A stretch of DNA of 64,000 nucleotides from Escherichia phage HMD-6. The notes under the pieces were generated by a model. The model made no database searches. It saw only the letters and a program-made list of their open reading frames with translations, and was not told where the DNA came from. The stretch lies in the sequence record PQ505080.1, one strand, 5' to 3'. Made by a program: the position numbers and the translations under genes. Below are positions 9,891 to 12,123 of this stretch, one piece after another (within the stretch, counting starts at the first letter, position 1; each line of letters begins with the position of its first letter).

Positions 9891-9950
9891 TTTCAGGGTT
9901 TTGACATATTTGTTTGTTTTTAGTATCCTATAATAAAGGAGGAGACAGTC

Positions 9951-11576
9951 ATGGCTAAATTGAGTGCAGAAAGGTTTATCGAAAAAGCTCGTAGGGTTCA
10001 CGGAGATAAGTACGACTATTCTCTTATAGAATACAAAACATGCAAAGATAAGATAGAAATAGTCTGCAATACCTGTGGTAACCACTTCAACCAGACACCG
10101 GATAACCATATAAATCTAAAAAGAGGATGCCCTGTTTGTGGAGCTGAGAGATCTGCAAAATCAAGAAAGGGTAAGAAATTCCCCCATGAGCGTGGTAACA
10201 GGTGCACTACAGAAGAGTGGATCAAGAAGGTACTAAAAAGATATCCTGAAAATGCTGAAAAGTATGATTATAGTCATGTAGTGTACAAGACCTCTGGGGA
10301 TAAGGTTGAGATTCATTGCAAAATGTGCGGAAGAATAATGCACCAGAAACCTAGCAAGCATTTATCAGGGCAAGGGTGCAAGACTTGCGCAGCAAGATCT
10401 GTTTCTGCGAAAAAAGTTCCTAGCTTCCAAGAAATAGTTGAGAGATGTGTAGAAGTACATGGTAGTGATTATGAGTATTTTGAAGACTCTTATGTGAACA
10501 CCTCAACACCTATGATGATGCGCCACAAAGAGTGTGGGAATATCTTCATGCAGCGTCCTGAATTCCATTACGGGAAAGGACAAGGATGCCCTCGTTGCTG
10601 TCGAAATCAGTCTAATGGTGAGAAAGAGATCCTGACGTTCATTAAAAGTGTGTATAGCGGCGATATTGAAGAGAACGTGCGTATTCTGGACAACTTTAAG
10701 GATCCTTCCAAGAAAAAGATGGAGCTGGACATTTATGTTCCGGAGCTTAAGCTTGCTGTGGAATATAATGGTGCCTACTGGCACTCTGTAGACAGTAAGG
10801 GGAAATGGTACCACATCCTGAAAAGGAAGGCTTGTGAAAAACAAGGTATTCGCATGTTGTCTATCTGGGATTGTGATTGGCAGGATGCTCGGAAAAGACC
10901 TATCATTGAGAGATATCTCAAGAATGCTTTAGGGGTCAAAGACGAGAAGACCGTCTATGCCAGAAAGTGCACAGTTAAAGATGTGGACAATAAAACTTAC
11001 CGTGACTTTATGGAGAAAAACCACATTCAAGGGTATGCCCCAGCCAAGGAAGTGAAGAAGGGTCTGTTTACATCTGACGGCGAGCTGGTAGCTTGTATGA
11101 GTTTTAAAATACTGAAAAACAGAGATCAAAAGGTAACCCCTTTCGTTATGTGGGACATGGTAAGGTATGCAACAAGCTGTAACGTTCCCGGTGGGCGTAG
11201 TAAGCTGTTTAAGCATATCCGAGAAGAGTTTAAGATGGATCATGTTCAATCCTTCCTTGACAGAGATTACTTCACAGGCGTGTCCTATAAGGAGGAGGAT
11301 GGCTGGATTTTGGCAGAGGACGATCAGGTGTCTACGAGCTTCTGGAGCTACCGTGGTGGCAGAATGCCAAGGCAGGCGTGGTGGAAGTCAAACATCCCAG
11401 AGACACTGAAGCATCTCGGGTTGGACGAGTCCTTATACGATCCTGAGAAAACACAAGAGTGGAATGCCAAAAATGCAGGCTGCTATATCCTTGAAAACAG
11501 TGGCAACTCTCGCTTTGAATGGCACAGTGATGAAGGTAAAAATGATCCTGCATACTTGGATTGGTTGAAAGGTTAA
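9951..11576 (+). CDS. homing-endonuclease-like protein: three tandem zinc-ribbon repeats plus a PD-(D/E)xK-like nuclease segment
   Basis: 541 aa; three copies of KYDYS...C-x2-CG...GCP-x-C (aa ~14-65, ~95-150, ~165-215); then ELDIYVPELKLAVEYNGAYWHS; A-rich codon usage (aga, agg, ata) unlike neighbouring structural genes; free-standing between tube and chaperone genes. Confidence 0.6.
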   Translation: MAKLSAERFIEKARRVHGDKYDYSLIEYKTCKDKIEIVCNTCGNHFNQTPDNHINLKRGCPVCGAERSAKSRKGKKFPHERGNRCTTEEWIKKVLKRYPENAEKYDYSHVVYKTSGDKVEIHCKMCGRIMHQKPSKHLSGQGCKTCAARSVSAKKVPSFQEIVERCVEVHGSDYEYFEDSYVNTSTPMMMRHKECGNIFMQRPEFHYGKGQGCPRCCRNQSNGEKEILTFIKSVYSGDIEENVRILDNFKDPSKKKMELDIYVPELKLAVEYNGAYWHSVDSKGKWYHILKRKACEKQGIRMLSIWDCDWQDARKRPIIERYLKNALGVKDEKTVYARKCTVKDVDNKTYRDFMEKNHIQGYAPAKEVKKGLFTSDGELVACMSFKILKNRDQKVTPFVMWDMVRYATSCNVPGGRSKLFKHIREEFKMDHVQSFLDRDYFTGVSYKEEDGWILAEDDQVSTSFWSYRGGRMPRQAWWKSNIPETLKHLGLDESLYDPEKTQEWNAKNAGCYILENSGNSRFEWHSDEGKNDPAYLDWLKG

Positions 11577-11577
11577 A

Positions 11578-11606
11578 TTGACAATGCACTATAATCATGG
11601 TAAAAT
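11578..11606 (+). promoter_or_regulatory. sigma70-like promoter, TTGACA-17 bp-TAAAAT with TGG extended -10
   Basis: -35 TTGACA 11578-11583, TGG 11598-11600, -10 TAAAAT 11601-11606; directly after the endonuclease stop. Confidence 0.5.
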
Positions 11607-11649
11607 ACACAAATATGGTGCACAACATGACTAATAAGGATGCTATAAA

Positions 11650-12123
11650 ATGGCTATAAACTTTAGACCTACAACAGAGATTGATTTAGCAGGGCACAAC
11701 TTTGTGATCACCCACTGGGGTCCGATGAAAGCAATGAAAAACATGCCTAAAATCGGTAAGATTGTAGCTGTCCCGCTAGGTGCTATCGGTGGATCTATTC
11801 TCTCAGGCGGTCAGAATATGGCAGAGGTCCTTCCTACAGCCCTGGCTTACCTGTTCCAAGAACTTGATGACAACTCTATTGAAGAGTTATTTAAAATCTT
11901 GTTCGAAGATATTACCGTAGATGGTGTGGATAAGCTTAACCCTGATGTTGTGTTTGCAGGGCATCTCCTAGAGATGATTAAGCTGGCAGGTAAGGTTCTG
12001 GAGGTTAACTACGGCTGTTTTTTCACACAAGACGGTTTAGGAAGCCTTCTGGAGATGTTACAGCAGATGGGTATGATTCAGCAGGTGAACAATCTGGATC
12101 AGACTCCGGAAGAGCAGGAATAA
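11650..12123 (+). CDS. tail assembly chaperone (lambda gpG-like role)
   Basis: 157-aa acidic ORF immediately upstream of the tape measure gene; contains the T-run slippery site. Confidence 0.55.
   Translation: MAINFRPTTEIDLAGHNFVITHWGPMKAMKNMPKIGKIVAVPLGAIGGSILSGGQNMAEVLPTALAYLFQELDDNSIEELFKILFEDITVDGVDKLNPDVVFAGHLLEMIKLAGKVLEVNYGCFFTQDGLGSLLEMLQQMGMIQQVNNLDQTPEEQE
12018..12024 (+). other. candidate -1 programmed frameshift site T TTT TTC
   Basis: X XXY YYZ heptamer aligned to chaperone codons Phe-Phe; the -1 frame opens at 12009 and runs to 12383. Confidence 0.35.

Follow-up and report, generated by a model that had tools for sequence, protein, structure and literature searches.

A probable free-standing Hef-like homing endonuclease gene in the tube-chaperone spacer of a Vequintavirus

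Large lytic phages commonly carry free-standing homing endonuclease genes. Cleavage of nrdB is reported for the Hef endonuclease of phage U5 (PMC2988022), and in the Dickeya phage LIMEstone1 the gene F-LimVIII adjoins the tail tube gene (PMC3296691). The EDxHD nuclease family was defined by Taylor et al. (2011) on I-Bth0305I, an enzyme whose cleavage adjoins its own insertion site, and phage endonucleases of the Hef type were explicitly included in it (PMC3239194). In the protein family phrog_559 only a Vsr signature has been found, its members being intron-encoded in the terminase genes of Bastillevirinae (PMC11878797). For the fusions of Mom to a restriction endonuclease (Mom-REase) in jumbo phages, a restriction-modification reading was proposed by Iyer, Aravind and colleagues (PMC7824862). 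The domain architecture is known in outline; the two published readings of the family have not been reconciled. Here we describe a gene of 541 amino acids (aa) plus stop (9951-11576, + strand) in Escherichia phage HMD-6 (PQ505080.1), the window under analysis being a whole stretch of 64,000 nucleotides. Domain identities, intact catalytic and zinc-ligand residues, purifying selection, presence or absence at one site and discordant histories of insert and flanks form the direct basis for its assignment, probably correct, as a free-standing Hef-like homing endonuclease gene in the tube-chaperone intergenic spacer of a Vequintavirus.

The window comes from an rV5-like Vequintavirus, 98.5% identical to Escherichia phage JEP1 over 9300-12200. 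Its tail tube and tail assembly chaperone genes lie 1801 bp apart, as against 159 bp in phage FV3, and the difference of 1642 bp corresponds to the segment missing from insert-free relatives (9913-11554, + strand; the junction can slide by ~6 nt). An earlier reading made from the letters alone (the sequence-only reading) had drawn the element at 9891-11650, an extent that is here corrected. Among 122 phage records matching the flanks, DNA between the two genes is found only in JEP1, PDX, A147 and A135 while the flanks are contiguous in the remainder, and the 2901-nt query aligns to insert-free records as two flanking pieces with a combined span of 1259 nt. The 162-bp FV3 spacer is unbroken in 113 of 117 records at ≥95% identity (74 at ≥99%), so that close relatives with intact flanks show sporadic occupation (4/117) of one exact site. 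What the sequence-only reading had named as speaking against an insertion, an orthologue in place in all relatives, is thus not the pattern among the Vequintavirus records, and its proposal of an intergenic mobile insertion resembling a homing endonuclease gene gains support from these unbroken spacers and from an insert history uncoupled from that of the flanks.

The left junction falls directly after a TTGACA hexamer (9901-9906, + strand). This hexamer is resident sequence, because it lies to the left of the junction and is also carried by insert-free phages (FV3, FFH2, EPFV3, Gotham and rV5_ev147). The right junction lies ~22 nt before the stop codon of the gene, and the last 22 nt of the open reading frame (ORF; 11555-11576, + strand) are held in common with the insert-free allele, reading CTTGGATTGGTTGAAAGGTTAA in the window and CTTGAATTGCTTGAAAGGTTAA in five insert-free phages (20/22 identical), across which the junction sequence is the same. 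Translated in the frame of the gene this end gives YLDWLKG-stop in the window and FLNCLKG-stop in the insert-free allele. Retention of the TTGACA and of 20/22 nt of the 3' end of the ORF in frame resembles a deletion scar, as would be left if an ancestral resident gene of the tail module had been lost from most Vequintaviruses by one deletion and were not mobile now; the presence of homologues in the same slot of distant relatives (L009 and L010) also favors such a loss.

These histories are discordant with those of the flanks. Between the window and JEP1 the insert is 99.1% identical in DNA (15 differences in 1639 nt) with a synonymous divergence (dS) of 0.046, compared with 0.08-0.10 in the flanking genes; in the deposited JEP1 genome the gene is already present, annotated only as 'hypothetical protein'. 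The allele in PDX, A147 and A135 is a different one (611-616 aa, four zinc fingers), and its dS from the window allele is 1.2-1.8 where computable, while the tube and chaperone genes of those genomes show a dS of 0.13-0.17. Between these two allele types nonsynonymous divergence (dN) falls from 0.26 across the fingers to 0.10 for the nuclease and 0.034 for the C-terminal domain; a dN/dS of 0.03-0.07 shows purifying selection on the gene. The backbone of the window is like that of EPFV3, which lacks the insert (98.5-99.0% in the distant flanks), and its markers turn JEP1-type in 8743-9912 and 11555-11700 (31 JEP1-type and 14 EPFV3-type, compared with 40 and 196 elsewhere; Fisher p 1e-11, for a region chosen with the data already in view). 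More distant phages (L009, L010) have 62-66% identical homologues in the same tube-chaperone slot, and another phage has a 51-54% identical homologue between nrdD and nrdG. Taken with the presence/absence pattern, the discordant histories are hallmarks of a site-specific mobile gene rather than a vertically inherited one.

Vertical descent and loss cannot give these patterns without added horizontal transfer. Under the ancestral-gene explanation one would have to accommodate two alleles of saturated synonymous divergence (dS above 1) between neighboring genes that are not, an EPFV3-like backbone combined with a JEP1-like insert and upstream tract, an A147 allele in which PDX-type and window-type sequence are combined as a mosaic, and a close homologue at a different locus beside nrdD. 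We therefore consider loss of an ancestral gene highly improbable.

Two local observations accompany this comparison. In the sheath gene, ~0.6-1.2 kb ahead of the insert, the markers of the stretch 8743-9311 change from the EPFV3 type to the JEP1 type by 19 to 3, a tract that is compatible with co-conversion at the time of cassette acquisition but is not proof of it. The A147 allele (L004) is PDX-like (L003) overall, and its linker and second zinc-finger region (…AAKSRKGKK…RCTTEEWIKKVLKRYPENAEKYDYSHVVY…) match window 10150-10300, a pattern that speaks for allelic recombination within the repeat array.

At the empty site, the insert-free allele repeats the motif TTGA[AC] four times in direct orientation within 40 nt, at a spacing of 13-9-13 (e.g. 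L002 3570-3625, equivalent to window 9901-9912 joined to 11555-11583). By expectation 55 nt would hold 0.17 such motifs, and four occur in no stretch of that length in the window. The insert sits between motifs 1 and 2, and the motifs could be recognition repeats bound by the fingers, although the observation was made after the fact. Flank substitutions fixed in all insert-bearing genomes, as marks of an immunity site, were sought and none was consistent across both allele types. A tblastn search of the window for paralogues of the 541-aa protein returned only the protein itself. An intron-borne gene was considered and rejected: no Rfam family reaches its gathering score anywhere in the window, and the genes on either side are both complete and adjoin each other in insert-free phages.

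The protein belongs to a large family. PHROG scans match it to phrog_559 ('HNH endonuclease', E 1.1e-110) and phrog_3339 ('homing endonuclease', E 6.3e-67), and it has 1207 homologues at E≤1e-5. By tblastn it matches genes that carry the annotation Hef or Hef-like in phages of Campylobacter, Tenacibaculum, Klebsiella, Salmonella, Acinetobacter and Dickeya, and a single genome can hold as many as 12 copies of such homologues. Direct family scans of the protein are weak (only sub-threshold zinc-finger matches in Pfam, nothing meaningful in NCBIfam and a weak 'HEase' match in PADLOC), and the domain identities therefore required profiles and structure. An AlphaFold2 model was built on 50 homologues (mean pLDDT 90.4), and residue conservation and Pfam counts are given over 50 homologues throughout. 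The 541-aa ORF of the sequence-only reading (9951-11576, + strand, ATG start, with AGGAGG at 9937-9942) was confirmed, as were its three tandem zinc-binding repeats, in each of which the ligands are filled and which phrog_4605 matches in three stretches; that reading had recognized the zinc repeats and the nuclease and had overlooked a C-terminal GNAT domain of ~200 aa.

The nuclease domain (10605-10952, + strand; residues ~219-334) has a Vsr fold of the EDxHD type, placing it in the Vsr-like branch of the PD-(D/E)xK superfamily. The family profile matches only one solved structure, the catalytic domain of I-Bth0305I (3r3p, E 1.4e-6). Seven residues (S221, E224, D260, E271, G274, H278 and K291) are invariant in the homologues and all are present in the protein. 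In I-Bth0305I the composite catalytic motif is made up of D196, N208, H213 and D222 plus a Glu; for this motif the protein has D260, E271, N273 and H278, which are invariant or nearly so, and His288 at the position aligned with D222. The crystallized I-Bth0305I is a D196A/H213A mutant, and the alignment around its D196 is ambiguous. A PD-(D/E)xK-like nuclease had been proposed from the letters alone, which is correct at the level of fold but not for the canonical D...(D/E)-x-K triad, since the second motif reads E271-Y-N273. The PHROG label 'HNH endonuclease' is a misnomer: neither the protein nor any of the homologues has an HNH match in Pfam, and the fold is Vsr-like.

N-terminal to the nuclease are three tandem treble-clef zinc-finger repeats of the DUF723/DUF4379/CapR type (9957-10604, + strand; residues 3-72, 86-155 and 157-218), presumed to bind DNA. 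By explicit alignment repeats 2 and 3 are 40% and 31% identical to repeat 1; self-BLAST for internal repeats found none, and the repeats are visible only in that alignment and in the multi-stretch PHROG and Pfam matches. The ligand pattern Cx2[CH] ... Cx2C is complete in every repeat (C39/C42/C60/C63, C123/C126/C143/C146 and H192/C195/C213/C216), and these columns are always C or H in the homologues. While the protein itself stays under the Pfam zinc-finger cut-offs (18.3 vs 24.5; 13.9 vs 20.9), DUF4379 matches 47/50 homologues, DUF723 41/50 and CapR 16/50, and the number of repeats ranges from 2 to 5. In phage ICP1, arrays of this kind are presumed to serve the T5orf172 homing endonucleases for DNA binding, and the related CapR is a DNA-binding repressor (PMC10448857).

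Since a phage satellite has recruited the CapR-type fingers of homing endonucleases for use as a repressor (PMC10448857), the gene could be imagined as a domesticated CapR-like regulator of tail-gene promoters whose nuclease is no longer used. Its position next to the chaperone promoter is in keeping with such a role, as is the clustering at the empty site of the four TTGA[AC] motifs, two of them -35-like hexamers. The conserved nuclease residues are nonetheless all intact and under purifying selection, and 113 of 117 relatives manage without the gene, which leaves domestication scarcely credible.

The remaining 38% of the protein (10953-11573, + strand; residues ~335-541) has a GNAT fold resembling that of Mom, with a role that is only predicted, and is the largest domain and the most conserved part of the family. 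Pfam Mom (PF25680) gives no match to the protein at E≤1 and matches 4/50 homologues (best E 2.1e-5), while profile-profile alignment to Mom with hhalign gives a probability of 89.9% (E 1.7e-6). In a Foldseek comparison with predicted viral structures, Mom is the first named stand-alone match after nuclease fusions (E 3.8e-10), ahead of generic acetyltransferases. The residues shown to matter in Mu Mom are H58, R111, S124, D149, R151 and Y159 (PMC13219725). In what is a remote alignment, H58, R111 and Y159 fall on H358, R405 and Y446 (each 50/50), S124 and D149 fall on S417 and D437 (38/50 each), and the essential R151 falls on D439, a position that is Arg in only 11/50. By itself the domain is found in 341 phage records at 823 places, under the labels Hef, Hef-like and homing endonuclease, with 'nuclease/acetyltransferase' used for some Acinetobacter phages. 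An exhaustive search recovers 8179 cluster representatives at E≤1e-3 (clusters at 50% identity), mostly of 430-680 aa with the domain at the C-terminus. In the databases the pairing of nuclease and GNAT domains goes under the name Hef, and it is the hallmark of Hef-like genes.

Conservation of this kind is what lends interest to the proposal that the protein is a single-chain conflict system akin to restriction-modification, in which the Mom-like domain would modify the phage's own adenines, the nuclease would attack unmodified DNA of host or competitor, and mobility would be secondary. The Mom-like domain diverges least (dN 0.034 vs 0.10 for the nuclease and 0.26 for the fingers), the essential Mom residues H58, R111 and Y159 lie on invariant positions with S124 and D149 largely kept, and the structural matches include a PA5oct protein labeled 'putative homing endonuclease'. 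The essential R151 is however not retained in place, and the protein itself reaches no Pfam Mom score and in PADLOC gives only a weak 'homing endonuclease' match. Nor would a generally beneficial system be expected to occupy one and the same intergenic site in just 4 of 117 near-identical phages, its alleles having a history separate from that of the flanks; genomes with several diverged copies and the existence of intron-encoded relatives fit selfish elements. A conflict system is accordingly unlikely in our estimation, and it and homing are not mutually exclusive.

The best guess for the Mom-like domain is engagement with DNA, that is, target binding or base flipping, possibly with catalysis. 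A bolder version, which we rate as unlikely, is that Hef-family proteins including this one are bifunctional and that the GNAT domain covalently modifies DNA, for instance an adenine at or near its own recognition sequence, with acyl-CoA or an aminoacyl-tRNA as the possible donor. In its favor, no other part of the protein is as constrained as this domain, most of the Mom catalytic residues are kept and thousands of such fusions exist. If bifunctional, the protein might render the carrier genome immune to self-cleavage or mark DNA during homing, and the gene would be a mobile single-polypeptide site-specific 'restriction-modification' element. The use of Gly-tRNA by Mom for DNA modification was shown in 2026, and the role of the domain in a nuclease fusion is consequently now a concrete and testable question.

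If the gene is a homing endonuclease gene, its mode of spread could be as follows. The cassette would supply its own -10 element and a strong ribosome-binding site. During co-infection by a carrier and an insert-free phage, the uninterrupted spacer would be bound by the three zinc fingers, perhaps with a contribution from the C-terminal domain, and the Vsr-like domain would cut at or near this spacer in the insert-free genome. Repair of the break by recombination with the carrier genome would then copy the 1.6-kb cassette along with some flanking markers. Because the tube terminator and the chaperone promoter are left intact, the cassette should be nearly neutral for the phage.

Several points weigh against this interpretation. 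The target site is a guess, and cleavage and homing are presumed from the family. The position of the last EDxHD Asp (D222 of I-Bth0305I) is occupied by His288, with His in 47/50 homologues. The resident -35-like hexamer and the insert-borne -10 element stand 22 bp apart, which makes expression of the gene only putative. The homing mechanism does not account for a Mom-like GNAT as the most conserved domain. The 'empty' site may be an old deletion scar, given that 20/22 nt of the ORF 3' end are kept in frame in the insert-free allele, and single events may have been either gains or losses. Finally, these phages are generally mosaic, and a marker switch near the insert is not unique to homing.

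The signals around the gene bear on several further statements of the sequence-only reading. Upstream lies the tail tube gene (9372-9845, + strand, a 157-aa ORF), labeled tail tube or virion structural protein in the annotated rV5_ev147 and FV3, with a Pfam Phage_Tube_PhiTE match on its L009 homologue. It is followed by an intrinsic-terminator-like hairpin (9862-9885, + strand; 10-pair stem with 6 GC pairs) and a T run (TTTTGCTTT tail), which is kept in insert-free genomes and annotated as a terminator in phage Gotham. Downstream of the insert, the chaperone gene has a promoter-like site (11578-11606, + strand; TTGACA-17-TAAAAT, TG-extended, 11/12 match) that is identical in insert-free genomes and annotated as a promoter in Gotham. 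The claim of a tube-gene terminator upstream and a chaperone promoter downstream is therefore sound. The chaperone gene itself (11650-12123, + strand, a 157-aa ORF) is labeled tail assembly chaperone in the annotated FV3 and FFH2, and its L009 and L010 homologues match Pfam Phage_TAC_15. Of the two hexamers proposed as the gene's own promoter with a 22-bp spacer, both are present at that spacing, but only TATAAT (9929-9934, + strand), which the insert-free allele lacks, is insert-borne, the TTGACA being resident. A Shine-Dalgarno AGGAGG (9937-9942, + strand) precedes the ATG by 8 nt. In the homologous cassettes of L009 and L010, TTGACA-17/18-TATAGT/TATATT/TATACT stands before the gene, that is, at the canonical 17-18-bp spacing.

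Composition gives no sign of a foreign origin, and this line of evidence was rejected. The gene has a GC content of 0.431 vs 0.4445 for the whole window, and its GC content at third codon positions (GC3, 0.461), its third-position A (0.231) and its synonymous-codon likelihood under the neighbors' usage (-1.00) are, like its GC, inside the range of the neighbors. Total A is 32.6%, the neighboring genes having 24-33%, and the A excess of the gene arises because the protein is rich in Lys, Glu and Asp (61 Lys). An A-rich codon usage unlike that of the neighbors, as had been suggested, was thus not found.

Other features of the compared phages are recorded here as observations in their own right. 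In L011 (a metagenomic phage contig, ENA ERZ28616410, 1-4000) nrdD is split among five ORFs that lie a few hundred bases apart, a group I intron is matched by Rfam at 2306-2549 (72 bits), a 606-aa homologue of the window protein follows directly after nrdD, and a small DUF723+MUG113 (T5orf172-like) gene stands just before the radical-SAM activase gene; this nrdD locus is a hotspot for mobile elements. In the more distant L009 (likewise a metagenomic contig, ENA ERZ27302833) an extra 108-aa ORF with its own TTGACA-18-TATATT lies between the tube and endonuclease genes (3579-3905), and the tape-measure region (6695-9866) seems split into a 414-aa TMP_3 ORF, a 174-aa HNH_3 ORF and a 365-aa ORF, which suggests a second mobile nuclease inside the tape-measure gene. 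In the window the Gly/Ala-rich stretch of the tape-measure gene (14200-14700) is the most variable among the compared phages (88-95%, with a 3-nt length difference); dN/dS for this gene was disregarded as an artefact of an indel in an ungapped comparison. In the sheath-gene stretch 8295-8895, PDX is only 85-88% identical to every other compared genome, with 96-100% on either side, a separate mosaic patch. Eighteen records named 'Campylobacter phage' (MG065644, MG065690, MG065646 and others; flagged UNVERIFIED, with C. jejuni as host) share ≥97% identity with E. coli Vequintaviruses across the insert region, and their C. jejuni host label looks doubtful.

As a mobile element the gene is routine. 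Its setting nevertheless offers a natural experiment, with more than 110 near-identical phages sharing an identical empty site and two very different alleles in one slot, in a tractable E. coli system where mapping of the target and homing crosses would be easy. It also draws attention to the defining C-terminal domain of Hef, which spans ~8000 clusters at 50% identity and is more constrained than the nuclease.

The gene compares most directly with the Hef-like genes of other phages (U5 Hef, here compared through statements in later papers only; the Campylobacter CP220/CP8-type genes; F-LimIII/VII/VIII/X of LIMEstone1; and genes of Salmonella Vi II-E1, Klebsiella and Acinetobacter phages). Homology extends over the nuclease and C-terminal domains with membership of the same PHROG families, and these genes are likewise free-standing and intergenic, often beside structural genes, sporadic and multi-copy. 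Unlike them, the window lineage has three N-terminal DUF723-type fingers and would target the Vequintavirus tube-chaperone spacer. I-Bth0305I, the EDxHD prototype (PDB 3R3P), differs in being a 266-aa protein intron-encoded in recA, with N-terminal NUMOD/HTH DNA-binding motifs and no GNAT domain, and in having D222 where the window protein aligns His288. The ICP1 T5orf172/GIY-YIG endonucleases with CapR/DUF723 arrays share tandem treble-clef fingers of variable number, presumed to bind DNA, and show likewise gain and loss of repeats and recombination between alleles (PMC10448857), while their nuclease is T5orf172 rather than Vsr-like and they have no GNAT domain.

The C-terminal domain finds its counterparts elsewhere. 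Mu Mom (PDB 8BV8) is a GNAT acting on DNA, in which it attaches glycine taken from Gly-tRNA to N6 of adenine. The window protein shares with it a GNAT fold having a helical insertion before the last strands, but is only ~14-18% identical, is fused to a nuclease and zinc fingers and does not conserve R151 in place. The loop before helix 3 reads G-G-x-S, as in CoA-binding GNATs, compared with N-S-E-S in Mom, and the Mom-like domain may have modification activity only as a possibility. In the jumbo-phage Mom-REase fusions (Iyer et al., 2021; PMC7824862) a Mom-like GNAT is fused to a nuclease of the restriction-endonuclease fold, as it is here, and these fusions and the window protein probably belong to the same protein family. 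Where the published reading of Mom-REase is one of protective modification with restriction, the distribution described here points to a site-specific selfish element.

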